DNA of 64,000 nucleotides, from contig CAVYSE010000020.1 in the NCBI GenBank assembly GCA_963771075.1, forward strand, positions 11,385 to 75,384, in the 5' to 3' direction. The position numbers and the translations under genes were made by a program. The notes beneath the pieces are model-generated. The model saw only the letters and a program-made list of their open reading frames with translations, was not told where the DNA came from and did not search any database. Of this stretch, positions 6,101-36,886 are shown piece after piece. Source of the DNA: a candidate division FCPU426 bacterium. Its GTDB lineage: Bacteria > Oederibacteriota > Muellerivitia > Muellerivitales > Muellerivitaceae. The first letter of the stretch is position 1; each line of letters opens with the position of its first letter.

Positions 6101-9100
6101 GCTGCTGTCGGTGAATGGCGCGGTCAATGTAAACGCCGGGTCGTTGGAAGTCGCGGGGGGCGCGGGTAATTCGGACTATGGTTCCGCTGGTTCCATGGAC
6201 GGATCAGGCGGGAACGCGACCGCCCTACTGACCAATATGACCTTGACCTCGGATAATTATTTCGGTGGGCCCAACGTGGGTTCCCAAGCCAGTTTCACCC
6301 TCGCGGGGGGACAGGGCGGAAGTGACCTCAACCTGGGCAACGGGGGCGAAGGAGGCTCCTCGGCCTTGACGGTTTCGGGATGCGGTCTCGTTGGATTCGA
6401 GCGAATTGGCCCTTTCCGGCGGGGATGGCGGCGGCACCACTAACGGTACGGGCGGCACCGGTGGTAGCGCGACGGCCTCCTTTGGATCGATCTTGACCCT
6501 GACCGCCGCCCACGGCGATACCACTTTTACGGTGGCCGGTGGGGCGGGTGGCCAGTCGAATGGTTCCGGAACGGGCGGAACGGGCGGCGACGCGCTCTTG
6601 TCGGTCAATGGGGCTTTATCGATCGATTCCGCCAATGTGACCGTGGCAGGGGGGATTGGCAATGTCGGCGTTGGTTCCACCGGGTCCATGAACGGCGCGG
6701 GCGGAAACTCAGGTGCCGCTATGTCGGGCCTGTTTATGACCTCGAATAGTTATTTTGGGGGCCCGAGCGCTGGGTCCCAGGCCAGTTATGTCCTCGCGGG
6801 GGGAAACGGGGGGAGTGACACGGGCTTGGGCAACGGGGGCAAAGGGGGCTCGGCGGCCTTGACCCTCTTGGGCGGAGTTCAGGCGGATTCCAGCCTGGTT
6901 CAAATAACAGGAGGCAGCGGTGGAAGTTCCAGCGCAGGCGTGGCGGGCCAGGGTGGCGACAGTTCCTTGACCACCGGAACGGGTATCAGCCTGTCTGGAA
7001 CCTACCAGAGTTCGGTTTTGGATATCGCGGGAGGGTCGGGCGGCAATGGGGCCGATGGCGGTTCGGCGGCCTTGACGGTCGGGACGGCGATCACGGCCCA
7101 TTCCAGTTTCGTGACGGTTTCGGGAGGGTCGGGTGGCAATATCGCCAGCGGAAACGGGGGAAAAGGGGGCGACGCGACGGCGGTCCTCGGCACCTCTTTA
7201 GACATGGTCGCGGACAACAGCGATACCGGGTTCTCGGTGCTCGGTGGGAAGGGCGGCCAGACCAACGGATCAGGGGTGGGCGGGGCGGGCGGTGAGGCGG
7301 TTTTGACGGTCGCTTCCTCGGTGTCGGCGGATACCAGCCAGGTGAACATCCTGGGCGGCAACGCCAACTCGGGTTACGGTTCGAGCGGCGTTACCGAAAT
7401 GGCGGGCGGCGACGCGAACGCGTCCCTGGGTTCCATGAACCTGACCTCCAACCTTTATTACGGAAATCCCGGGGCCTATACCGGACCGGCCGCCCTAAAC
7501 CTGACGGGTGGGAATGGCGGTTATGACAGCAACGCGGGCAACGGCGGCCAGGGCGGTTCGGCATCCCTGACCGTTTCCGGGGGGTTCTCCATTGATTCCA
7601 GCCAGGTCGGTTTAAGGGGAGGCGTGGGCGGTAACGTGTCCAGCGGAACCGGGGGGCAGGGGGGAAACGCGTGGGTTTCCATCGGCACTGACTTGACCCT
7701 GGGTTCAACCTACGGGAGTTCGGGCATGAACCTGTACGGAGGGGGCGGCGGGAGCAGTTCCTCCGGGGTCGGGGGGGCGGGCGGCGACGCGACACTCCTG
7801 GTTTCGGGCGCCTTCTCGGGAAGCAATATCAACGTATTGGCGGGTAACGGCTCCAACGGTGGCAACGGCGGCAACGCCATTTTTGACGCGAATTCCGCGG
7901 CCTTGAACGGTAGCGCCACCCTGACCCTCCAGGCGGGGAATGGGGGCTCCGCCGGCAATGCGGGGGTCACCCTTGGTTCCCTCGACCTGGTGGACGCGGG
8001 TACCTTCATGAGCGTGCAGGCGGGAACGGGCACGTCCAACGGCGCGGCGAACGTCCAAATCGGATCGCTCGCGGGAGCAGGGGGACTTTTCGTCAACAGC
8101 GCGGGCAACAGCAGTTTGCAGGTTTCCAGCGGCGATTTCACCGGCGTCATTTCCGGAAATACGGGGCTGGACAAGACCGGCGCCGGGGCCCTGACCCTGA
8201 CGGCCGACAACACCTATTCGCAGGCCACTACCCTGGATGGGGGCGTCCTTCAATTCGGGGCTGACGCCAACCTGGGCGCCAGCGGCCAGCTGGTTTTCAA
8301 CGGGGGAACCCTGCAGGCGGGCAACGATCTCATCACCAACGAGACGGCGACGCTGGCATCTACGGCGGGAACCATTGACCTGAACGGCAACGCCGTGACT
8401 TGGAACGGAGTGATCGGCGGGCCGGGGTCCCTCAACGTGATCTCCTCGGCGGCGGGTTCGGGCCTCCTGACCCTTTCCAACACGAATACCTATGCGGGGG
8501 CCACATCCATCGTGAATACCGCGGTGGGTGTTTTTGGGGATTCCAACCTGGGGACGGGCGGGATTGTGCTTAATGGCGGCACCCTGGCGGCTTTGGACAA
8601 CCTGACCCTTTCCCATTCCATCACCCTTCTCGCGAACGGCGGGACCGTGGAGGATGACGCGAATAACATTACTTTGAGCGGAATCATCAGCGGTTCCGGC
8701 GGATTGAACCTTGAGGGCACCCCTTTTCACGGGGTTCAAGTTCTTAGCTTGACCGGGGCCAACACCTATTCGGGCGGGACAACCATCGGAGCCTTGTATT
8801 TACAGATCCAAAGTGGAGCCGACTTGGGGACGGGGACCGTTGTGTTCAATGGAGGGATATTACAGGCGGGCGCCAGTTTCGCCGCCAATCAAGACATCGC
8901 ACTTAATAACGGGTCGCGTGAGATTGATCTCAACGGCAACTCGGTCACCTGGAACGGCGTTATTAGCGGGAATGGGGAATTGGAGGTAGGGGATTCCTCT
9001 GGAAGTGGAAATGGGGTTTTGCGGCTGACCAATTCCAATACCTATACGAATGGGACTTTAGTGAATGGGGCTAATCTTTGGGTTTCCAGCGACGCCAACC

Positions 9101-11265
9101 TGGGCGCGGCCTCTGGCACCCTCAACCTGAGCGACGGCCAACTTTCGGCCTCCGACAACATCAATTTCAACGCCTCGAGAAACTTGGACCTGACCGGAAG
9201 CGGCGGCTTGTTGGATACCGAAGGCAACCAGATTACCTGGAACGGTGTCATTAGCGGCTCGGGAAACTTTGAGATCGGGGATGGCAGCCATTCCAGCACG
9301 GGGGCGGTGACCCTGACCAATGCCAATACCTATACCGGTTCCACCGTGGTCGATTTGGGCACCAGTCTGGTCCTCTCCGGCAATGGGACCTTGGGCGAGG
9401 GTATGCTGGGAGCTAATGGAACCGTCGATTTCAGCCTGACTAACGCCTCGGCCGTGGCGGGCACGCCCGTAACGGTTTCCTCCATCATCGGGAACGGCAA
9501 CCTCTACCTGGGCCGGATCGACCTGGTGACGGGGACCGATAACGCCAACGTGGAATTCGACGGGGTTATTTCCGACGGCGGGGCCGCAGGCGCGGGCGTC
9601 ACAGGCGCCTCGCTGACCAAGGTGGGTTCCGGGGCCTTGACCCTGACGGGCGAAAACACCTATAGCGGCGGCACGGTCCTTCAAAGCGGAACTCTCGTGG
9701 CGGGAAATAGCCAAGTGTTCGGCACTGGCGATGTGGCCCTCAACGGGGGTACCCTTCAGATCAGCGGGCCCCGGTCCCTGAACGTGGGGGGCAATTACAC
9801 CCAATCGGCCGGGGCGACCCTGGCCCTGGGCTTAGGCCCCATCGCGACTTCTTGGGACACCCTGGTGGTCGGGGGCACCGCCCACCTGGGCGGAACCCTG
9901 GAAGTGGTTTCCTACGGGGGGTTCGCCATTCACGACAACGAGACCTTCACCATCGTGGAGGCGGCCGGCGTGACCGGAACCTTCGGGAGCGTACAGGATT
10001 CCGTGCCCGGAGACGCGGTGTCGGTGGCCTACAACCCCACCGACGTGATCCTTTGCACACTGGCCAACGCGCCTTCATTCCATTCGTTGGGCACGACTTC
10101 CAACCAAAAACAGGTCGGCTCGGCCTTGGATAACCTGGCCACGGGTTCGGGTTCATCCGCCCTGATCACCTTCCTGAACAGCCAGTCCAATTCCGCCCTC
10201 CCGGGCGAAATGGAAAAATTGAGCCCGGCGGGATTAACTCCCCTTTTCCAGATGGGATACGCCTCGGCGGAAGTGCGGGGGCAGGCCATCAACGCGAGGC
10301 TGGAGGACCTCTTGGGTCTCACCAGCGTCTACGGCAACGGCCTGGCGAGGATGGGCGGAAGCCCGATGTTCGCCTCGACCCTGCCGGCGCGGGAGGAAGC
10401 GGGGATCGCCCGGCATGTTTCCGAGGACAACCGCCTGGGCGGGTTCCTGACCGGGCTGGGCGATTTCGGCACCGTCTCGGGCGATGGCAACGCTCCCGGT
10501 TACAGCTTTTCCACGGGAGGAGTGCAGGCGGGCATCGACTATTGGTTCGACCGCTCCCTGGTGGCCGGTCTTCTCTTCGGCTATGACCAGTCGGGAACCG
10601 GCACGGGAAGCACCGCCAGCGTCAGCGGCAGCGGGGAAATGGGAGGCCTCTACGCCGGATGGAAGGCGGATGAGCTTCGGATTTTGGCCCAGGTGACCGG
10701 CGGGCTGGACAACTACAGTACCCAGCGCGAGACGCTGGGCATGGGCGGGGTCAACGCCGTCGCCACGGGTTCGCCCCAGGGGGAACAACTGGGCGGGGAA
10801 CTGAAGGTGGCCTTGGACCTGACCGACGCCGGCCTGATCCTCTCTCCCTTCGCCTCGGGCCAGTATGGCTACGTGCAGGTGAACGCCTTCCAGGAAGCGG
10901 GAGGCGGGGTGCTGGCGCCCGAGTCCTTCCCGAACCAGGGGCAATCCTCCCTGTCGAGCCAATTGGGCCTCAAGATGGGGACGAGCTGGTACCTGGGAGA
11001 CTTCAGCCTGGCGCCCTCCATCAGCGCCGCCTGGGAACATTTCTTCCAGGGCGACCTGGACCAGATAACGGCTAATTTCGGGACCTCGGGTTCATCCTTC
11101 ATGGTGAGCGGACCCGCCACCGGGGCCGACGACGCCCTCTTGGGCGCCGGCTTGGAAGCACAGTTCTCCCGGCAAGTCACCTTTTTCGCCCAGTTCCAGG
11201 GCAGGGTGGGCATGACGAACGTGGATTCGAAGAATATTTCGGGCGGGGTGAACCTGGCTTTTTAA
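3190..11265 (+). pseudogene. Giant (~2690 aa if intact) classical autotransporter with Gly-rich (GGNGG / VDSS) repeat passenger and C-terminal autotransporter barrel. It is disrupted by four single-base frameshifts. Track ORFs 3103..4338, 4269..5180, 5201..6022, 5679..6443 and 6391..11265 are segments of one gene.
   Basis: ATG at 3190 after an AAGGGA ribosome-binding site, followed by a signal peptide MKNLFGIPALKISAFAVAALGFILG. The five successive ORFs in frames 1,0,2,0,1 all carry the same repeat family (LTVSGGVSLDSS..., GGNGGSDLNLGNGG...). Restoring one G in the G5 run at 4176-4180, one G in the G7 run at 5153-5159, one base near 5680, and removing one base near 6379-6386 makes one continuous frame. 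The C-terminus ends GGVNLAF with an autotransporter barrel homologous to ORF 2..2803. Confidence 0.8.
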
Positions 11266-19671: not shown

Positions 19672-19956
19672 TATGGTGGTAAAAGGTTACCAGGAACATG
19701 TTCCAATCCATTCCGCCTTGGGTGTCATGGATCGTCGCGGCTGAGAATTAAAATCAATCGGACGAATTATTTTGAAATTTACATTCCCGCCTCCGCAAGC
19801 TTGATAGTATCATTCATCAGGTTTAACGCCCCTTTTTGAAATTGAGGGGAAAGAAAAATAAAAAAATTAGGGGAGCCGCCATGAAGCATCAAGGGTGGAC
19901 TTTATTTCTCGTGTTGGTATTAGGCCAAGCCTTGGTCCTGTCCCACCTGGCCTGCG
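19672..19956 (+). repeat. Copy A of a duplicated ~285 bp leader plus signal-peptide segment (pairs with 22066..22345)
   Basis: Direct comparison: ...AAAGGTTACCAGGAACAT...GGGTGTCATGGATCGTCGCGGCTGA[G/A]AATTAAAATCAATCGG...TTGAAATTTACATTCCCGCCTC...TTGATAGTATCATTCAT...TTGAAATTGAGGGGA...ATGAAGCATCAAGGGTGGACTTTATTTCTCGTG... Confidence 0.8.
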
Positions 19957-21974
19957 GGAACGGCAATACCCCCACCAGCGCCCCCGCACCCGTGACGGTC
20001 GTTCAACTGGTGACGGCCACACCCACCCCCACAACTTCAGGCACTGCCCTATTCACGGCTACCTCCACAAAAACGATCACTTTAAGCCCCACCGTCACCA
20101 ATTCCCTTACGATTACCTTCACGCCCACCATCACGGGAACCTTCACCCAAACGAACACTCCCACGGTAACGAATACCCCCACCGCGACCTCGACTCCCAT
20201 GATCCTGTCGGTGGCAACCGTCCTCGGCACACCCGCGGACTCGACGCAGGCCCCCGGGGCGCAGAATGTGCCCATGATGCAGTTCAGCGTTAACAATCCC
20301 GGACCTGCCCCGGTGACCCTTTACGGATTTATTTTTCAATCCGTGGATTCAAGCAATGGGTCGCAAATATCGGGGGTCGCCCTTTTGAATTCCCAGGGAA
20401 CCCTGTTGGATAGCCGGGATTACAATTCGGGCTATGTGACGTTGGGAGGCGCTCCGCTAACGATCCTCGCAGGCGGTTCGGCTACTTTTGTGACGAATTA
20501 TAATTTTCAGGCGACGGCGGCGACCGGGGAATACAGCATGTCCCTGATGGGCATCAAGGGCCGGGATGACACCGGGCAGCTGGTCCAGGTCACAGGGGTT
20601 CCCGTGAGGGGCGCCCTGATCACGGTCGCGCAGTCGACCTTGGTCCCGACCAATAGCCCGACCAATAGCTTCACCTTCACTCCAACCTATACGGGAACCA
20701 TCACCCCGACGATCACCATGACCCCTCCCTTTACGGCGACTCCCACCCCGACTTCGACCCCCTACCTTTTGTCGGTGGCGACCCTCGCGGGTACGCCCTC
20801 GGCTTCGTTACAGATTCCCGGGGTGCAGAACGTGGCGGTGATGCAGTTGAGTGTGAACAACGCTGGATCAGCCCCAGTTACCTTATACGGATTGGTATTA
20901 CAGGCGGTCGATTCCACCTATGGGTCACAGATCGAGGCGGTGGATCTTTTAAACGCCCAAGGCGCCTTATTGGATAGCAAGCCGTTTGGCAATTCGGGTT
21001 ATGTGACCTTGGGAGGCGCACCCCTGACAGTGCCGGGGTCTGGCGCGGTGACCTTCGGGGTGAATTATGACTTTCAGGCGTCGGCCGGGAATGGAACCTA
21101 CACGGTGGGTTTGACGGGTTTGCGGGGAGTCGATGACACCGGCCAACCGGTACAGGTATCGGGGATTCCGGTGACGGGCGCGGCCATCTCGATCGCCCAA
21201 CCAACGGTGACTCAAACGGTCACCCCGACCAGCAGTCCCACCATCACCTTTACGCCCGCCAATACCTCCACGCCTTCTTGTCCAAGTGGGGAGTACAATT
21301 GCGGGGGCCAGTGCGTCAATTTTCAAACCGACAACAATAATTGCGGGGCCTGTGGGTTTGCCTGCGCCGCTGGACAAGTTTGTTCGGGCGGTTCTTGCCA
21401 ATTAAGCTGTGAGACCGGCGAGACGAATTGTTCCGGGCAGTGCGTCAACCTTCAAACGAGCGACCAAAACTGCGGGACCTGTGGACATGCCTGCGCCGCT
21501 GGACAAGTATGTTCGGGTGGTACTTGCGCCATTAGTTGTCAAAGTGGCTTAACGAATTGTTCGGGGGAGTGCACCAACCTGCAAACCGACAACAGCAACT
21601 GCGGAGCCTGCGCTCACCCATGCGCGGCCGGGCAAATATGTTCGGGCGGTTCTTGCCAATTAAGTTGCGAGAACGGAGAAACCGCTTGTTCCGGGCAGTG
21701 CGTCAACCTTCAAACGAGCAACCAAAACTGCGGGGCGTGTGGGGTTGCCTGCGCCTCTGGACAAGTATGTTCGAGCGGGAAATGCACAATTACCTGTCCT
21801 TCGGGCGAAACCGCATGCCCTTCTTCTAGCCCGACCGGTTGTTTCAATCTCTCCAATGATGTCAACAACTGCGGGTCGTGCGGGCATGTGTGCGCTCCCG
21901 GCCTGGATTGTGTTGGCAGTAGTTGCGTCAATACGGTGCCAACCGTAACACCGACCCCGACCGCCACGCCCTGA
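19881..21974 (+). CDS. Lipoprotein: two copies of a ~170 aa domain, Pro/Thr linkers, then seven tandem ~30 aa cysteine-rich repeats (C..G.T.C.G.C.NLQTD..NCG.CG..CA.GQ.CS.G.C)
   Basis: ATG at 19881 after an AGGGGAG ribosome-binding site. MKHQGWTLFLVLVLGQALVLSHLACG lipobox. Internal duplication (LSVATVLGTPADSTQAPGAQNVPMMQFSVNNPG... twice). Seven CxxC-type repeats at 21290-21960. Confidence 0.8.
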   Translation: MKHQGWTLFLVLVLGQALVLSHLACGNGNTPTSAPAPVTVVQLVTATPTPTTSGTALFTATSTKTITLSPTVTNSLTITFTPTITGTFTQTNTPTVTNTPTATSTPMILSVATVLGTPADSTQAPGAQNVPMMQFSVNNPGPAPVTLYGFIFQSVDSSNGSQISGVALLNSQGTLLDSRDYNSGYVTLGGAPLTILAGGSATFVTNYNFQATAATGEYSMSLMGIKGRDDTGQLVQVTGVPVRGALITVAQSTLVPTNSPTNSFTFTPTYTGTITPTITMTPPFTATPTPTSTPYLLSVATLAGTPSASLQIPGVQNVAVMQLSVNNAGSAPVTLYGLVLQAVDSTYGSQIEAVDLLNAQGALLDSKPFGNSGYVTLGGAPLTVPGSGAVTFGVNYDFQASAGNGTYTVGLTGLRGVDDTGQPVQVSGIPVTGAAISIAQPTVTQTVTPTSSPTITFTPANTSTPSCPSGEYNCGGQCVNFQTDNNNCGACGFACAAGQVCSGGSCQLSCETGETNCSGQCVNLQTSDQNCGTCGHACAAGQVCSGGTCAISCQSGLTNCSGECTNLQTDNSNCGACAHPCAAGQICSGGSCQLSCENGETACSGQCVNLQTSNQNCGACGVACASGQVCSSGKCTITCPSGETACPSSSPTGCFNLSNDVNNCGSCGHVCAPGLDCVGSSCVNTVPTVTPTPTATP

Positions 21975-22065: not shown

Positions 22066-22345
22066 GGTGGAAAAAGGTTACCAGGAACATATCCAAATCC
22101 TTTACGCCTTGGGTGTCATGGATCGTCGCGGCTGAAAATTAAAATCAATCGGTGAATTAATTTGAAATTTACATTCCCGCCTCTACAAGATTGATAGTAT
22201 CATTCATGAAGTTCGACGCCCCCTTTTTGAAATTGAGGGGAATGTAAATAAAAAATTAGGGGAGCCGCGATGAAGCATCAAGGGTGGACTTTATTTCTCG
22301 TGTTGGTATTAGGCCAAGCCTTGGTCCTGTCCCACCTGGCCTGCG
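22066..22345 (+). repeat. Copy B of the duplicated leader plus signal-peptide segment
   Basis: See copy A. It contains a plausible extended -10 promoter element, TTGATAGTAT. Confidence 0.8.
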
Positions 22346-23907
22346 GGGGCGGAAACAACAACCCGACGACTCCTGGCGGCAATAATAACGGGTCCAACCC
22401 AACCTCAACCTTTACCACGACCGCCCAAGCGACCAACACCCAGACTTCCAGCCCTACCTTCACGAAAACCCTTGTCAATTCGCCCAGCCCCACCTTGACC
22501 CTCACGAACACCCCGACCAACTCGCCCACGGGCACTCCCACTGTTACCTCCACCCCGACCTTGACGGGAACCATCACGAACACGCCAGTCTTCACCGCTA
22601 CCGGCACCATCACCGGCACGCCGACCTCCAGCTCGACTGAAACGGCCACCGATGTTCCTAGCGGCACCCCCACAACCACGTCCACTACCACGTCCACCCC
22701 CATCATGACCGGAACCCTCACCTTTACCGCGACCGCTGACCCTTCCGATACGCCTACCGCCAGTGGGACCCCAACCGCGACCTTAACCCAAACGGATACA
22801 CCCACGGACTTGCCCACAAGCACGCCGACCGACCTGCCCTCCGCCACGCCCACCCAAACCTCGACCTCGACGGTGGGAATTGGTTCCGCTTGCTCGTACG
22901 ACAGTGACTGCGCCACCGGGGATTATTGCTCGGGCGTGACCTGCGCGGCGAAATTGAACCAAGGCAATGTTTGCTCGGCGGCCGATCAATGTATAACCGG
23001 TAATTGTGTGGATGGTTATTGTTGTAATACCGCTTGCGGAAGTGGTGTTTGTTCGGCGGTCCTAAAGGGCGGAGGATCGAATGGGGTTTGTGGTTGTATA
23101 GCGATTGGCCTTCCATACCCCTTGAGTCCCAATCAATGCTGTACCAGTTACGGGGCAGGCGGGGTTTGCCAAAACGCGCCAACACTCACGCCCACCGTTA
23201 CCCCGACCTCCACGCCGTCCGCGACCCCCACCTCCACACCCACCGCCAGCCCCACCGTTACCTTAACCGGCACTTTCACTCCCACGCCTGGGTCGAACGG
23301 TGTGACCTGGACTTTCTCGGATTGCGGGTCGGGCAGTTCCGGCCCCACGGACGGATGGATTCAGGCCTCCCCGACATCCCCTTCAACTTTGGTTTCCATT
23401 CAAACCATCACGGGTTTGGGTAGTGGGCTTGTTGGTTCAAGCACTTGCGGATTGGCTTTCTATCTCCCCGGAGGCGCCATGTCGAATGGTATGTGTAGCT
23501 GGCAGTCAACGGGGACGGACATCGAGACAGTTTCGGCCTACGCTAACTTATCTGTACCCATCAACTGGACCCAAAACGGGTTAACCACGATATCCCTTCA
23601 ATTTACCTATAATGGTTATGGAGCCGGTATCCAACCGATCATCGTGGCGGGTTCCGGTCCGACGACTTACAGTGGAACCGTCGTTAATGACAACCAAAGT
23701 TCACCCAGTTGGTTGACGGCCATCTTTAGTCCATCCTTCAACGGTTCTGATGGAACCCAAGTTTTGGCGGCCGGTTTAGTTGTGAACGAAATGGCTCCAC
23801 CCCTCTCCATGCCCAATCCACATCCCCCCCCCGCTACTATTTGCGCGCCGTCCGGTGAAGAATTGGGCCCTGAAACCATATACGTTGATAACATTGAATT
23901 TTATTGA
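22270..23907 (+). CDS. Paralogous lipoprotein: identical signal peptide, Pro/Thr/Ser-rich region, Cys-rich module, C-terminal beta-rich domain
   Basis: The first ~25 codons and ~200 bp of upstream leader are near-identical to gene 19881..21974. Cys-rich GSACSYDSDCATGDYCSGVTCA...CCNTACGSGVC region. Confidence 0.8.
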   Translation: MKHQGWTLFLVLVLGQALVLSHLACGGGNNNPTTPGGNNNGSNPTSTFTTTAQATNTQTSSPTFTKTLVNSPSPTLTLTNTPTNSPTGTPTVTSTPTLTGTITNTPVFTATGTITGTPTSSSTETATDVPSGTPTTTSTTTSTPIMTGTLTFTATADPSDTPTASGTPTATLTQTDTPTDLPTSTPTDLPSATPTQTSTSTVGIGSACSYDSDCATGDYCSGVTCAAKLNQGNVCSAADQCITGNCVDGYCCNTACGSGVCSAVLKGGGSNGVCGCIAIGLPYPLSPNQCCTSYGAGGVCQNAPTLTPTVTPTSTPSATPTSTPTASPTVTLTGTFTPTPGSNGVTWTFSDCGSGSSGPTDGWIQASPTSPSTLVSIQTITGLGSGLVGSSTCGLAFYLPGGAMSNGMCSWQSTGTDIETVSAYANLSVPINWTQNGLTTISLQFTYNGYGAGIQPIIVAGSGPTTYSGTVVNDNQSSPSWLTAIFSPSFNGSDGTQVLAAGLVVNEMAPPLSMPNPHPPPATICAPSGEELGPETIYVDNIEFY

Positions 23908-24584
23908 TCAGCTTCACTAAAGCGCGATCCCTGAAAGGATTTGACCTATCAAGCGGTATCGTTCAATCCCCGGGTTCCCGTTAATTGTGTCGGCAATATT
24001 TTCACATGCCTGCGGTACCAGTGAAAAAAGGGGCAAAACCCCTTTTTCCATCCTGCTACCTCACCCTGAGGCGGCGTGACAAATAACCGGGCCGGAAAAA
24101 ATTTCAGGTTTTGAATTTCTGCTTTCTGCCAAATCACGCCTTCCCATGGCTTCTTTACCAAACACCGACCCACTAGGAGAAACATTTGTTGGCGGCCGAG
24201 ACCAATGAAAATTAAAATCAATCGTACGAAGCCCATCATCTGGGTGGTGTCCACCCAATTGGCCAAAGCCACCCTGTGGGACTCAGTTATCAAATTTAAG
24301 GGTTTTTTGAAGATTTTGGTAAATCAACTCTTTTGCCGTTTGATTTCTTCCCCATCGGAAAGTTCGCTTTCCCTCCTGTCCGGCTTCAGGCCGGTCCCAG
24401 GGCCTAAAGCGGCCAGATGAGGGACGGCATTCTCAGAAATACCCCTAATTCCCTTATTTGAATTCGTGGCTTGGTCACGAATTACCCTCCTTCGGGGCCT
24501 ACAGCGCCTAATCGTACGGCAGAACTCTTCGAAATCCCTTCATTTTGTGTGACCGTAATACGGGCTCGTAAGGCCATCGCTTCG

Positions 24585-24692
24585 AGGTATGGGAGGGGTA
24601 ATAGCCGAAGCGCCCGCCCAACCTTTTCCGAGGCAGACCCTTACCGGTCCGTAATGCGTCTTTGGGTCAGTATCGGGTTGGCGCTTTGCATT
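24585..24692. repeat. Diverged direct repeat copy 1 (~110 bp). Conserved core CGGTNNGTAATGCGTCTTTGGGTCAG[T/G]ATCGGGTTGGC.
   Basis: Aligned by eye to 25155..25258. The core 38-mer is near-identical. Flanks are similar but diverged. Confidence 0.6.
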
Positions 24693-24907
24693 GGAATATG
24701 CACAATCCGACTGCCCGAGTCCTCATAAAAGAAAATCCTCAAAAAACCCTTAAAAATGGCATTCGCCCGGCGAATGCGAAAAATAAGGGTTTTTCGCGTG
24801 GATGGTTTGGGTACTAATAGACCCTTTAAAATAAGGGATTTGCTTGTCCGAGGATCGGACAAGTGGAAATAAGGGAATTGGCCATCTCCTGGGAAAAGCC
24901 AGGGCTC

Positions 24908-24946
24908 GTTGCCAATTAACGTCAGGGCCTGACGTTAATTGGCAAC
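24908..24946. repeat. Perfect 39 bp palindrome: GTTGCCAATTAACGTCAGG-G-CCTGACGTTAATTGGCAAC (19 bp arms, 1 nt centre)
   Basis: Verified base by base. Candidate dimeric DNA-binding-protein site or RNA hairpin. Confidence 0.9.
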
Positions 24947-25154
24947 AAGAATCACCCCACATCTAAAACAAGGGAGTTCTAATTCGGAGTATCCGATTTA
25001 TAAAATAAGGGTTTTTTGAAAACCGAGGGAAGCCTTTTGGCATTGGCCGACCTTTGGGACTAAACCGGCCAAATGGGATAAAGCCAAATCAGAAATACTC
25101 AAATTTCCCTTATTTTTAGTGTTCGTAATACGAACAATCAAATCCCTAGCTTCA

Positions 25155-25258
25155 TGGTTGAGGAGGAGCAGAAGACGATGCGCCCGGGTTACCTTCTCCC
25201 GGTCAAACCCTAATCGGTTTGTAATGCGTCTTTGGGTCAGGATCGGGTTGGCCCGGAT
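25155..25258. repeat. Diverged direct repeat copy 2
   Basis: See copy 1. Confidence 0.6.
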
Positions 25259-26040
25259 CAGGGTTTCGATGGCCTGGTAGTTTGCGAACCAGCCCTTATC
25301 ACAAACGCCATGGTCAATCGGGGTTTATCAGGACTCCATCGTCAGGGGCTTGGTCGGATCGGGTTGAACTATCGCGGGGTAACAAAGGGCCCGGGCTGGA
25401 TCTTTTGTTCACGAAAATGAAAAAGCCCGAACAATTTTGCCCAGGCTTATTTCAACTAAACAATAAAACTAATTACTTCTTTTTCTTCTTGGCGGGTTTC
25501 TTCTTCGTGGCCACAGTGGACCTCCTTAAGTTTTAAAATCATATTGATATTAACATACTTTACCGAGAATTTTATATTTTTAATTTCAAAAAAAGAAATG
25601 TACTTCAACCGCATTTTATATTTTTTCGAAAGCAGTCGGAATGTGCGCAGAACTTGGAACAGGAATTCTTTAGAGCTTATATCCTCGGGGGCGTTAAATA
25701 GTCACGGAGTTTGCGATTAGCCACGACGGGCCATGTAGCTAAGCGCAAGCGCATGCTACAGGGCGGGGAACCACATTGGACATCTCCCAAAACGCTTTTG
25801 AACAATGTTTTCTAATAAAATCTTCCGCCCTGTAATACCTCTTCATAATTCATTGATAAAACCAGCCTAAATACCATTCTTTTGGATTTGTCAAAATCTC
25901 TTAGTGGTGTAATCATTGTTTTTACAGGCTTTTTTGTTGAATCCCTAACTGATTGAAAATAACGTAATTTTTTTGGAATAAACGGTTTCCCTCCGTCCTT
26001 TAATAGGTAGAGGAGGGGTTAGGTTAATGGAGGTATCCAT

Positions 26041-27349: not shown

Positions 27350-30300
27350 ATGAAGTTTAATCCAATGGGCGGGAATGGCTCCACTATAACCCCGGAGGAA
27401 TCATTTTTGGGTCGTAAATCCTAAGGATCCCTAGGCGTATTCTGGGCATTCCTTTTAGTCGCCGGAGGGTGGTTGTTGAGCCCGGGCGCCATCGCCCAAA
27501 CAAATACTCCGACCCTGACCGTGACGATGACTTCGACCCCGGCTCCCGTCACGGTGGAACTGACGCCGGATGTAGCGCTCTCTAACGCCACCCAAGCCCC
27601 GGGAGCGGCCAATGTCCCGGTCAGCGAGCCCTTTATTATCAACTTGTATGGACAGCAGCCCGTCACTTGGACCGCATTGACCGTGACCGCATCAGGGACG
27701 GGAAACACTGCCGGTATTACCAGTCTTCAGGTTTATCTGGACAACGATTACAGCGGCACCGTCGATGCGGGGGACACTCTCCTGGGTGCGGGCACTTTCA
27801 GCGGTTCGACCGCCACTATCCCCCTGAGCTACATTCTTTCCCCCGACGGTTTTGGTTCGTTCCTGGTTGTCGCCAATTTCTCCTCGAGCGCCGTTACTGG
27901 CACCTACGCTTTCAACATCACGGGAATGACTGGATCCTCCAATCTGCCCGTGGCCTTTACCGGTTTACCCTTCGCGGGAGTCACCATCACGATCCCCGGC
28001 CCCACGCCCACCGTGACCAATACCAGAACCATTTCCTCCACGCCGACCTCCACCCTTACTTCGACTATCACCTTGACAGCGACCGTCACCAACACCCCTT
28101 CTGGTACCTGGTATGCCACCCCCTGGACCAACACCCCCATCCCCCCAAATTCCTATACGCCAACCCCTATATTCACTTATACCCCCACGCCGGGATGGTT
28201 CAACGTGGCGTTAGGGCCCAATTCACCGACTTTTAACAATCCCTTATTGGTGGGTACCAGTAATCTCCCGGTGATCCAAGTTGTGTTGAGGAATGATAGC
28301 GGCTATTCCGCCACACTCACTGGATTGACCTTTACGGATACGGGCTCGGGCACTCCCTCTTCCGGTATTGACAGCTTCCAGCTTTATAACGACCTCAACG
28401 GAAACGGAATCGTGGACAATGGGGAACCCTTGTTGGGCGCCGCGAGTTTTACCGGTTCGACCGCCACCTTCAGTTTCACCCAGAACCTGGCGGCCGCCAC
28501 TGGAAGTGTGACCTTGCTGGCTGTCGCCGAATTCGCGTCAACGGGAAGTACGGGAACCTATACCTTCAGCGTCACGGGAGGCTCCGGATTCAACGGTTTG
28601 GGCGGCCCGGAGGGTTTCAGCAACCTTCCAGCCACCGGTGCGCCTATCACTATCACCTACCCCACGCCCACCCTGACTTCAACCAACAGCTACACACCCA
28701 CCGCTACCACCTCGGCCACCCCCAGCCCGACGAGCACCCCGACCAACTTGGGAGGCTTTACCTCCACGCCCACTCCCTGCGTCCCCGTTCTCCAATCCAG
28801 CTATACCTTCGACACGGGAACCGAGTGTTGGAGAACTTGGGGCGGGCCGGTAGGTTCTGTCCTACAGTGGGATTCAGTAGATGGCCATACCAATCCCGGT
28901 TCCTTGGAGGCCATCCTGCCCTATACGTCCGGCAGTGTCAGCCAGGCCCTGATTTTCCTGGACTTGTCCTCCGCGCCCCCGTGACCATTCCGGCGGGAAG
29001 CACCCTCAGTTTCTGGTATAAGGCCTCCACCTCGGTGGGAAACCTGCAAGTTTTCGATGCGAGCGTCACCCAGGGAAGCGGTGGACCCGTTTCCTACGTG
29101 TGGAACGATGGCAGCTGGCAATCCAGCCTGGCCACTTCCTGGACCCCGGTGACCTTTACCATGAACCCGGCGGGCCCCAACGCGGTGGAGGAGTTCGGGT
29201 TGCAAGTGCCGGCTGCGGCTGGCTCCATCACATCGCCGGTGACGGTTTGGGTCGACGATGTGACGATCAACCTGGCCGGATCGTTCACGGCCACACCGAC
29301 CGTTGGATCTACCTCGTCCAGTTGCTATCTTTTTGCGACCCAATGGGGAGGTTACGGCACTGGGGACGGTACATTTAGCGAAACCACGGGCGTGGCGGTG
29401 GCTCCTTCCGGAAACGTTTATGTGGTGGACGCCGAGAACTACCTCATCCAGGAATTCACATCGAGCGGGTCTTTCTTGACCCAATGGGGAGGATCGGGTA
29501 CCGGGTACGGGAAATTTGCCTTTCCCTGGGGGGTGGCGGTGGCCTCCTCTGGAAACGTTTATGTGACGGATATTGAAGACAACCTGATCCAGGAATTCAC
29601 CTCGAACGGGACCTTCTTGACCCAATGGGGAGGCTCGGGAAACGGGTATGGGTTCTTCACGGCTCCCTATGGCGTAGCCGTGGCCCCCTCGGGAAACGTA
29701 TATGTGGCGGATACCGAGAACAACCTCATCCAGGAATTCACCTCGAGCGGGTCTTTCTTGGCCCAATGGGGAGGCGCAGGATCCGGAAACGGATTTTTCG
29801 ACTATTCCTTGGGGGTGGCGGTGGCTCCCTCGGGAAACGTTTATGTGGCGGATTTCGGGAACAACCTCATCCAGGAGTTCACATCCGGCGGGTCCTTCGT
29901 GACCCAATGGGGAGGTAACGGCACAGGGAACGGGAAGTTTGCCTATCCCTATGGCGTGGCGGTGGCCCTCTCAGGAAACGTATATGTGGCGGATACCGAG
30001 AACAACATCATCCAGGAATTCACATCGAACGGGTCTTTCTTGACCCAATGGGGAGGCTTAGGAGCCGGAAACGGGTTATTCGACTATCCCTTGGGTGTGG
30101 CAGTGGCACCTTCGGGAAATGTATATGTGGCGGATTATGGGAACGATCTTGTCCAGGAGTTCACCTCCTGCCTTTCCCCCACGCCCACGAGCAGCCCGAC
30201 GGCCACCGTCTCTCCCACGCCTACCAGCACCAATCTAGGGGGCCTGACCTCCACCGTGACGAAGACCCCCACGACCACGGTCACCGCGACCATCACGTCC

Positions 30301-32796
30301 ACGCCGGTCTCTTGCTCCCCCGCGCTTCTTTCTTCTTATGTTTTCGATACCGGCACCCAATGCTGGACCGCTTGGGGTTCCGTCACGGCCACCGTTTCGC
30401 AGGACACGACGAACTATTACGCAGGGGGCGGCTCCCTAAAGGTCGTATTGCCCTTCACCAGCAATATCCAACAGGAACAGATCGGCATCCAGTTCCCAGG
30501 CTCGGGCGTCGCCATCCCCGCCGGGAGCACCATCAGCATGGAGGTCATGGCCTCCAACAATGGGAACGCCCTGCAATTGTTTGACCAGAGCGGCGCGAAC
30601 GCGGTTAGTTGGGACGCCGGAGGCTGGGTGAACGCGGGAGGCTATGCCGCCGGAACCTGGTTCCCGGTCTCCTACATGGTCAACCCGGGAGCACCCACAT
30701 CCGTCGTCCAATTCGGTTTGGAGGTTCCCGCGGGTTCGGGATCGAGCTACGCCAACGGACTTCCGGTCACGGTCTGGATCGACAACGTGACCATCACCCC
30801 ACCCGTTTATTGCCCGGTCACGATGGTCGACGCTTTCGCGACTGAGGGCTCGGTCAACCTCTGGGGTGGGACCTGGACGACGATCGGTTCCGCGGACACG
30901 ATTGGCGTGACCTACGACGGCCCCGGGACCAATGGGGATCCCTATTCAGCGGGTGTGACGGGAACCCTGGCCACGGGCGGCTGGGCCAATTGGTACACGT
31001 TCCTTTACGCCACCGACACGGTCTTCGACGCGGCGGCCAACGGCCTCCAGGGCATCCAGTTTTGGATGAAGGGGGACGGCGGCACCTACCGCATGGTGGT
31101 CTTTTCCCAAGCGGTGACGGACAACGACTATTACGGTGTGAATGTCACTCCTCCCAACGACGGCAACTGGCATTTTTACCCCGTGCCCTTTTCCTCCATG
31201 GTGACCGTGGGATGGGGAACCCAGACGGGCTTGCCGAGCCACTTCGGGGCCACCGACCTTTTGGGCCTCCAATTTGAGACCGTGACCGCGCCGTCCACCT
31301 TCGCATTCTCCGTGGATCAGATCGCATTTTATTGTTCCACCACGGCCGTCCCCACCCCGACCTTGACGGTTTCAGCCACGGCTACGAAGAGTCCCACCCC
31401 CACCGTGACGCCCACTCCCACAAGCACCAACCTGGCAGGTTACACCTCCACTGTCACGAAGACCCAGACAGTCACGGCTACATCCACGATGACCCTAACG
31501 CCCACCGTCACCTTGTCTCCCACGGTGACCTTGTCACCCACCGTGACCTTGTCGGTCACTCCCACGAACACCAACCTGGGGGGCCTGACCTCCACCGTGA
31601 CCCTCACCCCGACCACCACCCCCACCTCCGTGGTGGTGGCCGTCAGCTCGGGTTCCACCGGCGCCGTCAATGTCTCGCCCGGAACCAGCAACGTGCCGGC
31701 CCTGCAGGGCAACTTGATCAACCTCGGCACTGCGCCGGTCACCCTTACCAACCTGACCTTGACCGACTTCGGCACGGGAAACCCCGGGAATATCGTTACC
31801 CTCTACGCGGTGATCAACGGGTCCTACGTGAGCCCCATCTCGGCCTTTGCCGGAACCACGGCTACGATCAATTTGAACAACTACGTCCTGAATGGTTCCG
31901 CGAATCAAACCCTGCAGATCATGGTGAGTTTCTCCGACAGCGCGTTGGGAACCTACCAATTGTCGATCGGCTATTTTAACGGGATCAGCGGCAATAACGG
32001 CCAACCGGCTTCCTTCACGGGATTCCCGGTGGAGGGTTATATGGTGAATTGCGAACCGCCCACCTCGACTTTCACATCGACCCCGACGGCTTCCGCGACG
32101 GCCACCCCGACGGCGACCCTTACGGCCACTTGGAGTGCTACCGTCGTCCCCACGGGAACCATTACGGTGACACCCTCGACCTCGCCGACCGTGACCCGTA
32201 CGCCCACCATCACCTCCACCGGCACCTTCACGGCCACCCCGACCTCCACCTACTCGGCGACCCGGACCCCGACATGGACCTTCACCTAGCCCCACCCCTA
32301 CGTCCACAGCGACTTTCACGGCCACTTCTACCCCCACACCACAAACACCTCTACGATGACCCCCACGCCCACCTTCTCCGGCACCTGGACGGTCACGTCC
32401 ACCCCCACGACCACGAGTTCCCTGACGGTCACCGTCACTCCGACGATCACCGCCACGCCAACAGCGACCTCCACCGAGGTACCCCTGGTGGCCGGGTCTT
32501 CCCTGAAAGTATTGCCTCCACAAGGGGGCGCTTATGTGGCCCCGGACCCGGTCTCGGGGAATACCGCGATGTTGGCCTATTGGATGGCCTCCTCCGGAAC
32601 GGCCCATATCCGTATTTTCAACGTCGTCGGCCAGTTAACGGCAAGGCAGGATGAAGAGAAGGCGGCGGGGGCTCAATCCAGCCTGTTGAACCTGGGCGGA
32701 TACGCCGCGGGCGTGTACCTGTACAAGATCGACATGAACTACGACTCGGGCGGGACGGACTCCGTGCCGGTATCGAAGTTTTTGGTGGTGCGCTAA
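27350..32796 (+). pseudogene. ~1,800 aa secreted protein: signal peptide, Ig-like/beta domains, six-bladed NHL-repeat propeller, CBM-like modules, Pro/Thr linkers, T9SS-type C-terminal domain. Interrupted by an in-frame TAA (27422) and three frameshifts. Track ORFs 27473..28984, 28825..32289 and 32356..32796 are segments.
   Basis: ATG at 27350 with GGAGG 8 nt upstream. MKFNPMGGNGSTITPEESFLGRKS-TAA-GSLGVFWAFLLVAGGWLLSPGAIAQ is a signal peptide with an in-frame stop. A C5 run at 28970-28974 is one C short. There is a compensating +1/-1 pair in the Pro/Thr linker at about 32285 and 32340. Six NHL repeats (GNVYV.D.ENNLIQEFTS.GSFLTQWGG.G.GNG.F). The C-terminus IRIFNVVGQL...GGYAAGVYLYKIDM...KFLVVR is a T9SS C-terminal domain. 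Confidence 0.75.
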
Positions 32797-34501: not shown

Positions 34502-36886
34502 ATGGAAACGATGAGAAGGGTTATAAAGATGGCCGGTTTTTTAGCCTTTATTTTTGGAGGCTTGGGAATCGGTTCGGGGCTATGGGCACAATATTCGAAT
34601 GAGGATGGGAGCGGCGATTTATGGACGGGAACGGGCTCCTCCGCCTCCGGGAATTGGAGCACCGCCACCGGTGAGTACAGCACCGCCACTGGGACAAGCA
34701 GCTCGGCATACGGACAGGCTGCCACGGCCAGCGGGCTGAGCAGCATCGCCATCGGGAATCTGAGTAATGCCGGAGCGAGTTGGACTACCGCCGTTGGATC
34801 GGAAAGCAACGCCGCCGGACTGGGCAGCTCGGCCTACGGGGATGCCGCCACCGCCACAGGAACTAGCAGCACCGCCCTCGGCAATAACAGCACTGCCAGC
34901 GGGAATTGGAGCACGGCCACCGGAGAGGGCAGCAACGCTGGGGGAACTTCCAGCGCTGCTTACGGGCAATCCGCCACCGCCACCGGATCGGGTAGCATAG
35001 CCATCGGGAATCAGAGCAACGCCAGCGGGAATTGGAGCACGGCTACCGGAGAAGACAGCAACGCCCTCGGGATTTCCAGCTCCGCTTACGGGCAAGCCGC
35101 CACGGCCAGCGGGAATTGGAGTACCGCCGTTGGGAATTTAAGCTCCGCCAGCGCGACTGACAGCACCGCCCTCGGCAATAACAGCACCGCCAGTGGAAAC
35201 TGGACCACCGCCGTGGGCGAAAACAGCAGCGCCAGCGGGGTTGCCAGCTCTGCTTATGGGCAAGCCGCCACTGCCAGCGGGCTGAGCAGCATCGCTATCG
35301 GGAATCAGAGCAATGCCGAAGGAAACTGGAGTGTCGTTGTCGGCTCGGACAGCAGCGCCACCGGGACTTCCAGCGCCGCCTATGGTCAATCCGCCACCGC
35401 CACCGGATCGGAAAGCATTGCTATCGGGAACAAGAGTAACGCCACTGGGAACTGGAGCGCCTCCGTGGGTGGAGACAGTACCGCTAGCGGAACTTCCAGC
35501 GACGCTTTCGGGCAGGGTGCCACGGCGAGTGGGAACTGGAGCACCGCCATCGGGAATTTAAGCTCTGCCAGCGCCACCGACGCTACCGCCATCGGAAATT
35601 CCAGCACAGCCAGCGGAAACTGGAGCACAGCCACCGGCCAGGGCAGCATGGCCAGCGGGGCGAACAGCACTGCGATTGGGGTAGGGAGTTCAGCCTCAAA
35701 TTATGGAAGCTCAGCTTTTGGAGCTGGCGCCACCGCCACGGGATCCTACGGCACCGCCACAGGATATGAAAGTAATGCGGTTCAAGCGGGCGATACCGCC
35801 TATGGTGTCAGCGCCATCGCTAGCGGATATTTAAGCACGGCCACGGGTTTTGCAAGCAATGCCAGCGGTTGGGAAAGTACCGCTACTGGAGTAGCCTGCA
35901 CGGTCATTGGGGATTACAGCACCGCCACGGGGTCTTTCAGTACCGCAAGCGGGACTAATTGCACCGCGAACGGATACGGAAGTAGCGCGAGTATTTATAA
36001 CAGCACCGCCACGGGATATGAAAGCATGGCATCAAATTCCTTCAGCACCGCATATGGGGCGGAAGCCATAGCCAGCGGTGAGAACAGCACTGCCACTGGA
36101 TTTTTAAGCACCGCCAGTAATACATACAGCACGGCTACAGGATGTAACAGCAATGCGAGTGGGTTGAATAGTACTGCCGCCGGTTTTAGCAGTAACGCCA
36201 GAGGTAGCAACAGTACCGCTACTGGCTCTTACAGCCAGGCCACCACAACGAATAGTTCGGCTTATGGCGTCAGCGCAATCGCAAGCGGTATCAACAGTAC
36301 TGCAACAGGAACAAACAGCACCGCCGTCAACCAAGGGGACACGGCTTACGGTGGATTCGCCACCGCAAACGGTTCTTTTAGCACATCCCTGGGGGAATAC
36401 AGCGCCTCCACGGGCGTCAATAGCACCGCAGTGGGGTCCGGAAGTATCGCCAGCGGAAATAACAGCACGGCCATCGGGGCTAATAGCGTGGCGAGCGCGA
36501 ACAATAGCGTCGCCTTGGGGACGGGGTCCTTGGCGAACCAACAAAATATCGTCTCGGTCGGAAACGCCAACACCGGTTTGACCCGCCGCATCACCAACGT
36601 GGCGCCTGGAGTAGCCAGCACCGACGCGGCCAACGTGGGGCAGTTGACCAGTTCCGCCCAGACGGCCGGGGTCATGGTGGGGGCGGCCGCCAACGCTTCC
36701 ATGGGATTGATGGGGCTTCCAGGCGCGACTCGGGTGGCCCTGGGCACGAGCGTCATGGGCAACCAGGTGGGGATGGGCCTGGCCGTACAAAGGAGCTTTG
36801 ATAGTTGGGCCGCCTCCCTGAGTACCTCCACCGATGGAAATCTTGATTACATGCAGGTAGGCGGCTCGGTCGGTATCAGCTTTTAA
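34502..36886 (+). CDS. YadA-like trimeric autotransporter adhesin (type Vc)
   Basis: Signal peptide. More than 40 head repeats of the S.A.G..S.A.G type (NSTASGNWSTATGEGSNAGG...). Neck/stalk motif NVAPGVASTDAANVGQL. C-terminal membrane anchor ending ...VGGSVGISF. Confidence 0.85.
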   Translation: METMRRVIKMAGFLAFIFGGLGIGSGLWAQYSNEDGSGDLWTGTGSSASGNWSTATGEYSTATGTSSSAYGQAATASGLSSIAIGNLSNAGASWTTAVGSESNAAGLGSSAYGDAATATGTSSTALGNNSTASGNWSTATGEGSNAGGTSSAAYGQSATATGSGSIAIGNQSNASGNWSTATGEDSNALGISSSAYGQAATASGNWSTAVGNLSSASATDSTALGNNSTASGNWTTAVGENSSASGVASSAYGQAATASGLSSIAIGNQSNAEGNWSVVVGSDSSATGTSSAAYGQSATATGSESIAIGNKSNATGNWSASVGGDSTASGTSSDAFGQGATASGNWSTAIGNLSSASATDATAIGNSSTASGNWSTATGQGSMASGANSTAIGVGSSASNYGSSAFGAGATATGSYGTATGYESNAVQAGDTAYGVSAIASGYLSTATGFASNASGWESTATGVACTVIGDYSTATGSFSTASGTNCTANGYGSSASIYNSTATGYESMASNSFSTAYGAEAIASGENSTATGFLSTASNTYSTATGCNSNASGLNSTAAGFSSNARGSNSTATGSYSQATTTNSSAYGVSAIASGINSTATGTNSTAVNQGDTAYGGFATANGSFSTSLGEYSASTGVNSTAVGSGSIASGNNSTAIGANSVASANNSVALGTGSLANQQNIVSVGNANTGLTRRITNVAPGVASTDAANVGQLTSSAQTAGVMVGAAANASMGLMGLPGATRVALGTSVMGNQVGMGLAVQRSFDSWAASLSTSTDGNLDYMQVGGSVGISF

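Follow-up and report, generated by a model that had tools for sequence, protein, structure and literature searches.

Clustered palindromic sites are typical of ParB-family proteins. The parS sites of ParB (Spo0J) and the Noc-binding sites (NBS) of Noc are fixed palindromes of 16 and 14 bp, respectively, and the sopC centromere of the F plasmid consists of 12 repeats of 43 bp, each with a 7-bp inverted repeat. The first Bacillus subtilis parS was reportedly found inside the spo0J coding sequence, which provides a precedent for a site located within the gene of its own protein. Repeats of a different kind are found in shufflons and other multiple-inversion systems, such as R64 Rci/sfx and the phase-variable hsdS loci, and template switching at quasipalindromes is a mutagenic mechanism of the Ripley type. 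Here we describe a 2,133-bp interval (the block, positions 23908–26040) within a 64-kb stretch of DNA from a candidate division FCPU426 bacterium (the window), together with a palindromic element that lies inside the coding sequence of a divergent family of ParB/Noc-like genes. Our analysis indicates that the core of the block (24219–25324) is probably non-functional debris of such genes, and that the element in the intact genes is most likely a parS-like site.

The block lies between a lipoprotein gene and the gene for an extracytoplasmic function (ECF) sigma factor. The initial annotation described it as a gene-free, low-GC region filled with a short motif, unrelated perfect palindromes and diverged direct repeats, and these features are present far above chance as judged by motif count, clustering of the extended motif and palindrome density in comparison with shuffled sequence. 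The GC content is 0.39–0.51 in the block versus 0.55–0.63 in the flanks, and the longest open reading frame (ORF) inside it does not exceed 114 aa. Six of the eight exact copies of AATAAGGG in the window fall at 24451–25114 (24451 and 25107 on the minus strand; 24782, 24830, 24868 and 25004 on the plus strand), as had been reported. The extended form AAWWWAAGGGWWTT has eight matches with at most one mismatch, all within 24293–25116, with 1.1 expected for the whole window. Seven palindromes (stem of at least 7, loop of at most 7) were counted in 24201–25330, equivalent to 6.2 per kb or about ten times the window average of 0.59 per kb (shuffles, 0.43 ± 0.66). All the short perfect palindromes named in that annotation were found, and the 39-bp palindrome at 24908–24946 is flawless (19 + 1 + 19). 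In total, about 10 site or motif copies are packed into 0.85 kb. The two direct repeats, put at about 110 bp, are real and longer than this: 24520–24682 aligns with 25090–25252 (71% identity) and 24389–24459 with 25045–25115 (70%), and the copies share a 32-nt core with a single differing base. A clustered regularly interspaced short palindromic repeat (CRISPR) array was ruled out by the irregular spacing (48, 38, 99 and 37 nt) and mixed orientations of the units.

The minus strand of both direct repeats translates to a ParB-like helix-turn-helix (HTH) region. Copy B reads ...NPILTQRRITNRLGFDREKVTRAHRLLLLLNHEARDLIVRITNTKNKGNLSISDLALSHLAGL..., and copy A1 reads likewise with an in-frame TAA; the direct repeats thus appear to be two copies of an HTH-coding region. 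A word-indexed protein search with the copy-B peptide returned nothing and identified no close intact relative, so an exhaustive search was needed. Using phmmer with the translation of 25001–25324 (minus strand) against 1.84e9 representative sequences, we obtained 42 matches, 24 of them at E ≤ 1e-10 (best E 2.8e-18), with 44–55% identity over residues ~130–230 of proteins that are 240–935 aa long. Pfam searches with the raw window peptides gave only sub-threshold matches to HTH_ParB (E 0.054 and 0.2), and Pfam and NCBIfam returned nothing beyond these. When the family hidden Markov model (HMM) was run against a six-frame translation of the whole window, it matched three fragments only (B, A1 and A2). 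No match covered HMM positions 1–142, and the window therefore contains no ParB_N part. A DNA profile built from the intact genes added two further fragments, D (24834–24881, plus strand, E 1.2e-4) and C (24965–25050, plus strand, E 8.5e-3), and found nothing significant outside the block in the 64-kb window.

Fragment B (25046–25324, minus strand) corresponds to HMM positions 143–235 (independent E-value, i-E, 5.6e-34; DNA profile E 3.5e-29). It comprises 108 open codons, lacks the ParB_N domain, has its first start codon (TTG) at 25141 and holds the site copy designated h10 and m10. Fragment A1 (24485–24685, minus strand; HMM positions 166–235, i-E 1.4e-10; DNA profile E 2e-16) is interrupted by the TAA at 24641–24643, and its site is degenerate (CCGTAaTACGG at 24553–24563 with AAATGAAGGG at 24532–24545). 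Fragment A2 (24219–24491, minus strand; HMM positions 202–289, i-E 2.6e-11; DNA profile E 2e-23) reads VIRDQATNSNKGIRGISENAVPHLAALGPGTGLKP in a frame that differs from that of A1; because the two overlap at HMM positions 202–235, a partial tandem duplication is indicated. Fragment C (24955–25060, plus strand) belongs to an 'LFGVSELENKG' subtype, contains two in-frame stops (SKTREF-stop-FGVSDL-stop-NKGFLKTEGSLLALADL) and abuts fragment B tail-to-tail. Fragment D (24818–24953, plus strand) is weak and frameshifted (KIRDLLVRGSDKW / NKGIGHLL...AR), and it terminates in the long palindrome. For these last two fragments, intact genes of individual metagenome loci (L numbers) were also used as single-sequence nhmmer queries against the whole window, giving E-values of 7.5e-8 (L021) and 2.5e-6 (L026) for C, with 80–82% identity over 55 aligned positions, and 2.3e-3 (L021), 3e-3 (L026) and 0.024 (L022) for D.

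Based on these matches, the block appears to contain at least five truncated, frame-broken ParB/Noc-like fragments at 24219–25324, on both strands. The description of the block as gene-free thus holds in that no ORF is longer than 114 aa, and fails in that significant pseudogene fragments are present. Their similarity to the HTH and downstream region of the family is significant, as expected of ParB/Noc-like remnants; the missing N-terminal domain, in-frame stops and frame changes are those of a gene that no longer functions. Each of the fragments spans the same short stretch of the gene, and the fragments are no more similar to one another than to genes of other organisms. At least two, and probably three, subtypes of the gene are represented among them.

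The intact members of this family were collected from 30 metagenome loci from peat and soil, many of which are truncated at contig ends. Pfam ParB_N was recognised in several of the phmmer matches tested, above the Pfam cut-off in only one. In NCBIfam, the family falls far below the cut-off for Noc and is marginal (at or below cut-off) for ParB. A profile search of the PDB matched Spo0J, Noc and ParB chains, and an AlphaFold model with a predicted local distance difference test score (pLDDT) of 80 matched Noc, ParB and KorB in Foldseek at E ~1e-8. The intact homologues therefore combine ParB_N (sub-threshold in most) and HTH regions with a ParB/Noc/KorB fold and, like the proteins of the ParB/Spo0J-parS and Noc-NBS systems, their parent family has the CTPase-fold ParB_N domain followed by an HTH. 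In view of their NCBIfam scores, we consider them a divergent, uncharacterised orphan ParB/Noc-like family that is distinct from Noc or ParB proper. The intact proteins are only 37–56% identical. No ParA, integrase or relaxase is encoded in the neighbourhoods of the intact genes, where the neighbours are unrelated housekeeping genes. The defence-system models of PADLOC gave no match to the family, and neither the protein nor the DNA element described below was found in viral contigs. Twelve of the loci (L009, L010, L011, L012, L014, L016–L020, L023 and L031) encode proteins with long variable C-terminal regions, some with hydrophobic segments, and with a second, much weaker ParB_N-HTH internal repeat. 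This second module corresponds to HMM positions ~100–305 (E 1e-5 to 1e-11), lies downstream of the main match and has no palindrome.

In the intact genes, the codons for LIVxNxxNSNKG form a palindrome accompanied by AAATAAGGGA. The dyad (AATTGTnnnnA-a-TnnnnACAATT) pairs over up to 11 bp around a single-nucleotide loop and is followed by cAAATAAGGGAAT. The complete element, TTAATTGTnnnnA-a-TnnnnACAATT-cAAATAAGGGAATTnGGGGTATTTC, spans about 50 nt and is asymmetric, as indicated by conserved synonymous positions up to six codons 3' of Asn-Lys-Gly. Identity at third codon positions is 0.79 inside the element versus 0.55 outside and reaches 1.00 at several synonymous positions of this stretch. Related dyads characterise two further subtypes, with L021 and L026 sharing ATTCGGA-gta-TCCGAAT and L022 having CTTGTCGGAG-a-CTCCGACAAG. 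The motif noted in the window, AATAAGGG, corresponds to the codon string AAT-AAG-GG for the conserved Asn-Lys-Gly of the family. In L023, the motif is duplicated in frame at 672–722 (AATAAGGAAAATAAGGG, encoding NKENKG) and accompanied by a one-mismatch dyad, so the element itself can undergo small tandem duplications.

The pairing of the dyad was evaluated by a covariation test on 18 distinct intact-gene sites, with 500 shuffles and slid registers as controls. The inner bases of the dyad vary among genes yet stay complementary. Stem cells are paired in 95.5% of cases (19–45% in the slid controls), and compensatory change on both sides was found in 10 of the 11 stem pairs. Double-change cells number 45, compared with 11.2 ± 2.7 in shuffles, none of which (0/500) reached the observed value; there is a single one-sided change, and only 2 of 198 cells are G-U. 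Covariation also links a Val position where the change is synonymous (GTT/GTC) to an Asn/Asp position where it is not (AAC/GAC). Such near-exclusive Watson-Crick pairing favours a DNA-level role for the element. In the model of the intact protein P0007, the corresponding residues 194–204 fall in a loop that joins the HTH to the following helix and is modelled with low confidence (pLDDT < 50 for residues 198–206); the predicted loop is consistent with a protein segment that tolerates a nucleic-acid constraint.

Since the protein family is ParB-like, the element is most simply read as a cognate parS-like site, and in the intact genes it is most likely the DNA site that the encoded ParB-like dimer would bind. 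In its dyad symmetry, the element resembles parS and NBS. Unlike these fixed palindromes, its dyad measures 23 bp (11 + 1 + 11), of which the outer AATTGT/ACAATT is conserved and the inner core covaries freely, and is followed by the asymmetric conserved flank cAAATAAGGGAATTnGGGGTATTTC. Each intact locus contains exactly one copy, inside the gene, and no extra copy of its own palindrome was found in intact loci, including flanks of up to 10 kb. Conservation of the dyad at the nucleotide level is a result for the intact genes. Also in contrast to ParB/Noc systems, no intact cognate parB or parA lies nearby in the window, which holds broken fragments only, and ParA is absent beside the intact homologues, whose gene neighbourhoods are unrelated. 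In the literature, we found surveys of orphan ParB-like proteins, none of which described a gene-internal covarying palindrome. Template switching, through which quasipalindromes can correct themselves, may also help to keep the dyad perfectly symmetrical; alone, this process leaves the conservation of the element among proteins of 37–56% identity unexplained.

The palindromes of the block, held to be unrelated in the initial annotation, are better described as homologous copies of this one gene-internal element, and from their alignment they appear to be diverged or subtype-specific versions of its dyad. The site copy of fragment A2 (24447–24483, minus strand) reads AATTCGTG-accaagc-CACGAATT then cAAATAAGGGAATT, with 9 of 11 stem positions pairing in the family register. 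That of fragment D (24843–24879, plus strand), CTTGTCCGA-gga-TCGGACAAG then tgGAAATAAGGGAATT, resembles the L022 site over 24843–24863. The site copy of fragment C (24964–25015, plus strand) comprises AAAACAAGGGAG (K-T-R-E codons), AATTCGGA-gta-TCCGATTT and AAAATAAGGGTTTT, a layout identical to that of L026 and L021, and its palindrome at 24981–24999 equals the L021 type. In fragment B, the site copy (25103–25136, minus strand) reads TGTTCGTA-t-TACGAACA then ctAAAAATAAGGGAAAT, and the palindrome at 25120–25136 resembles the L014 type. Weaker second motif copies at 24828 and 24964 represent the K-T/I-R-D/E codons (AAAAYAAGGGA) that lie 5' of the dyad in the second and third subtypes. Every motif copy can thus be read as a string of codons from a gene fragment. 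Of the 11 stem positions of the family register, the block stems keep only 7–9, and the conserved outer AATTGT/ACAATT is mostly lost.

The core has further inverted and palindromic features. A sixth unit at 24742–24794 is a head-to-head inverted duplication of a site copy, with 26-nt arms that are 81% complementary; it contains the 9-bp palindrome GCATTCGCC-c-GGCGAATGC (24759–24777), with AAGGG on both sides (24739–24752, minus strand; 24780–24793, plus strand). The long palindrome at 24905–24949 has 22-nt arms that are 95% complementary and includes the perfect 39 bp (stem 19, loop 1). Because its centre coincides with the GGGCC of the 'LGPG' codons that close fragment D, we read it as a snap-back inverted duplication. 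A short motif piece, TTTAAGGGTTTTTTGAAGATTTT (24295–24317, plus strand), has an inverted partner at 24732–24754 (minus strand; 23 nt, 96% complementary), and the pair brackets fragments A1 and A2. The string TAAGGGTTTTTTGA is common to the former piece and to 25006–25019. The geometry of the 26-nt arms, of the near-perfect 45-bp palindrome on the LGPG codons and of the C/B tail-to-tail junction resembles that left by quasipalindrome template switching and suggests such an origin. In this scenario, the palindromes would have promoted template-switch or snap-back rearrangements that gave rise to inverted and tandem partial duplications; these rearrangements would in turn have left head-to-head and tail-to-tail junctions centred on palindromes, in pieces that may now be drifting.

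Four other metagenome contigs overlap all or part of the block at 99.3–100% identity, with the same arrangement and no inversions. Single-nucleotide polymorphisms (SNPs) were compared between the window and two near-identical metagenome contigs, L001 and L002. L001 differs from the window at 11 positions in the 2133-bp block and at 6 in the upstream gene (1821 bp compared); the 1382 bp downstream show no difference. L002 differs at 22 positions over 1715 bp of block sequence, followed by ~1460 bp without a difference. The SNP density of the block is thus 3–6 times that of the flanking genes. Three SNPs, at 24909, 24998 and 25125, disrupt stem pairs and have no compensating change; those at 24909 (in the long palindrome) and 25125 (in a stem pair of B) occur in both L001 and L002. 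Separately, 14 of the 22 block differences seen with L002 are concentrated in a stretch of ~90 bp (25269–25356) immediately upstream of fragment B, which suggests a recombination tract or hypervariable patch. No transposase, integrase or relaxase gene was identified within ~15 kb of the block (ORFs scanned from 6.4 to 41.8 kb), and the block had no blastn match among plasmid and phage sequences. The earlier suggestion of a decayed remnant of an inserted element comes close with regard to decay; the pieces derive from ParB/Noc-like chromosomal genes, and no inserted mobile element is recognisable.

As to whether the block is functional, the evidence leans towards no. Several observations weigh against the interpretation as debris. 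All the detectable fragments include the element, with a rough chance of ~0.01 for the three fragments recovered in an unbiased manner by the protein HMM, and this could mean that sites were retained for their function. Stems of 7–9 bp are still perfect despite the destroyed reading frames. The SNP evidence comes from a small number of positions in L001 and L002, which are near-identical, junction geometry is the only basis for the template-switch origin, and the comparison had no closely related block-free genome with which to date or polarise the events. Protein binding by the element is likewise a prediction. The relatives of the sigma gene that could be retrieved as syntenic loci have 48–51% identity only (one is from candidate division FCPU426); they have other upstream genes and no block, and are too distant to date it.

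Because the element is present in all fragments, we kept as the main rival a functional multi-site array, that is, a centromere-like landing pad, nucleation cluster or decoy for ParB/Noc-like proteins encoded elsewhere, in which the fragments survive through sites used in cis. The density of site and motif copies and of palindromes, the confinement of all extended-motif matches of the window to this stretch and the presence of sites of at least two, probably three, subtypes would suit such an array, as would the clustering that is usual for ParB-family sites. Dense short palindromes tied to a ParB-type protein family are also a feature that the block shares with plasmid centromeres such as sopC. 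Unlike the regular sopC repeats, however, the units here are irregularly spaced (37–99 bp and more), lie in both orientations within decayed coding fragments, carry uncompensated polymorphisms and have no adjacent intact parAB genes. The elevated SNP density with three uncompensated stem changes, the stems shorter than the up-to-11-bp stems of intact genes and the loss of most outer AATTGT/ACAATT sequences also count against this explanation. Furthermore, intact loci hold their single site within the gene and none in flanks of up to 10 kb, and there is neither an intact family gene in the window nor a close relative in databases. We therefore regard an array as unlikely. A bolder proposal combines both levels: the element would be a predicted self-encoded loading or binding site, the inner dyad bases would double as codons for a flexible loop directly behind the HTH so that site and protein diversify together, and the block would be a retained multi-specificity landing pad or decoy built from recycled fragments. 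We consider this speculative and rather improbable.

A shufflon-like or silent-cassette archive, in which the hairpin with AAATAAGGG would act as a recombination site that, through inversion or gene conversion, swaps segments into an expressed ParB-like gene and alters its specificity, seems very unlikely. Like shufflons, the block has short conserved repeats in both orientations within partial copies of one gene region; the stem sequences vary among copies, and the 23-nt inverted pair flanks A1 and A2. It differs from them in that no recombinase gene is present within ~15 kb and that the window contains neither an intact expression copy nor a constant expressed 5' (N-terminal) part. Stop codons make the segments inexpressible, and the four overlapping contigs preserve one arrangement. 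The block also recalls repetitive extragenic palindromic (REP) sequences and bacterial interspersed mosaic elements (BIMEs) in its small palindromic units, which alternate in orientation beside a short conserved motif in a non-coding stretch. In contrast to REP/BIME or miniature inverted-repeat transposable elements (MITEs), its units are not dispersed in many copies; all eight extended-motif matches of the 64 kb, a figure for the window and not for the whole genome, lie in one 0.82-kb stretch. The units originate from protein-family coding sequence, and no REP-associated tyrosine transposase (RAYT) was detected among the genes scanned within ~15 kb.

Neither of the other two explanations put forward in the initial annotation, a regulator-site array and a non-coding RNA, gained support. 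Regulation of the downstream ECF sigma/anti-sigma operon was suggested by the position of repeated motifs and palindromes upstream of the sigma gene. We judge this highly improbable, as the motif cluster stops ~925 bp before the sigma start codon, the sigma homologues (48–51% identity) have short upstream regions in which the motif is absent, and codon strings already explain every motif copy. Hardly any weight is given to an RNA reading, be it one large structured non-coding RNA or several small RNAs in tandem: many hairpins and the lack of long ORFs are set against homology to protein-coding DNA at E 1e-29 to 1e-34, the absence of any Rfam match better than E 0.47 at permissive thresholds (all far below gathering scores), an empty tRNA/tmRNA scan, folding energies like those of shuffles (z −0.1 to −1.6 for both repeat copies on both strands) and the scarcity of G-U cells in the intact-gene stems, which is atypical of RNA helices. 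Other candidates were rejected outright. A template/variable repeat pair of a diversity-generating retroelement is contradicted by mismatches of all types with indels and by the lack of a reverse-transcriptase domain in the scanned ORFs; an oriC or iteron origin, by the absence of a skew switch and the codon origin of the 9-mer; and an integron attC array or IS200/IS605 ends, by the lack of such genes and the derivation of the units from coding sequence.

For the window, reading the core as gene debris means that the apparent field of motifs and palindromes is pseudogene material, and that annotation as an RNA gene or regulatory array is unwarranted. The more interesting by-product is a widespread peat and soil family of orphan ParB/Noc-like proteins with an in-gene palindrome under strict Watson-Crick covariation, where synonymous change is suppressed. 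The element is a clear case of overlapping protein and nucleic-acid codes, and it offers a direct, testable candidate for the DNA sequence that an orphan ParB-type protein would recognise; sites of this class are seldom known and difficult to identify. The block further suggests that in-gene palindromes make their host genes rearrangement-prone, and the window preserves only worn remnants of the dual-coded element.

The remainder of the 2.1 kb is ordinary intergenic sequence. The region 23908–24218 contains a terminator-like hairpin after the lipoprotein gene (AAAAAGGGG-caaaa-CCCCTTTTT, 24025–24047), and the AT-rich region 25325–26040, with sigma-70-like hexamers, is the promoter region of the sigma gene. 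Within the latter, a tiny ORF on the minus strand (25473–25514; GTG-ATKKKPAKKKKK-TAA) comprises 13 Lys-rich codons. It has a strong Shine-Dalgarno sequence (AAGGAGG, 25521–25527) six nucleotides upstream and is followed by a terminator-like hairpin with a T-run at 25423–25448 (minus strand; AAGCCTGGGCAAAATTGTTCGGGCTT TTTCATTTTC). Its sole SNP in L001 and L002 (25479) is synonymous, AAG to AAA.

The 18-nt GAAAATTAAAATCAATCG box occurs three times in the window (19743–19760, 22134–22151 and 24207–24224, with 0.01 expected). The first two copies lie in non-coding DNA ~125 nt upstream of the ATG of each of two lipoprotein paralogues, and the box contains a -10-like TAAAAT. The third, whose presence in the block had been noted previously, is on the plus strand in the 23908–24218 region, at the distal end of fragment A2, with TAAAAT inside it. 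Here only ~25 nt are shared (TGAAAATTAAAATCAATCGnACGAA), including ~7 bases just 3' of the box, with otherwise no homology to the lipoprotein upstream regions; on this basis, the box appears to be a discrete element, either promoter or operator, rather than part of a copied leader. The paralogues (19836–21974 and 22270–23907) have an identical 27-residue signal/lipobox N-terminus (MKHQGWTLFLVLVLGQALVLSHLACGG) and Thr/Pro-rich linkers and then diverge; in the first, this divergent part includes five Cys-rich repeats of the Stig1-like type (Pfam E 5.6e-27). Upstream of this first paralogue, a palindrome at 19688–19704 (CAGGAACATGTTCCA) contains a GGAAC motif similar to an ECF -35 element. This region is also conserved ahead of the second paralogue, and the palindrome may be recognised by the ECF sigma factor encoded nearby. 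The genes at 6391–11265, 34502–36886 and 28825–32289 encode large proteins that are surface-located or secreted (an autotransporter with PATR repeats, a YadA-like trimeric adhesin and an NHL-repeat protein), and this surface-protein-rich neighbourhood fits an envelope-stress ECF regulon.

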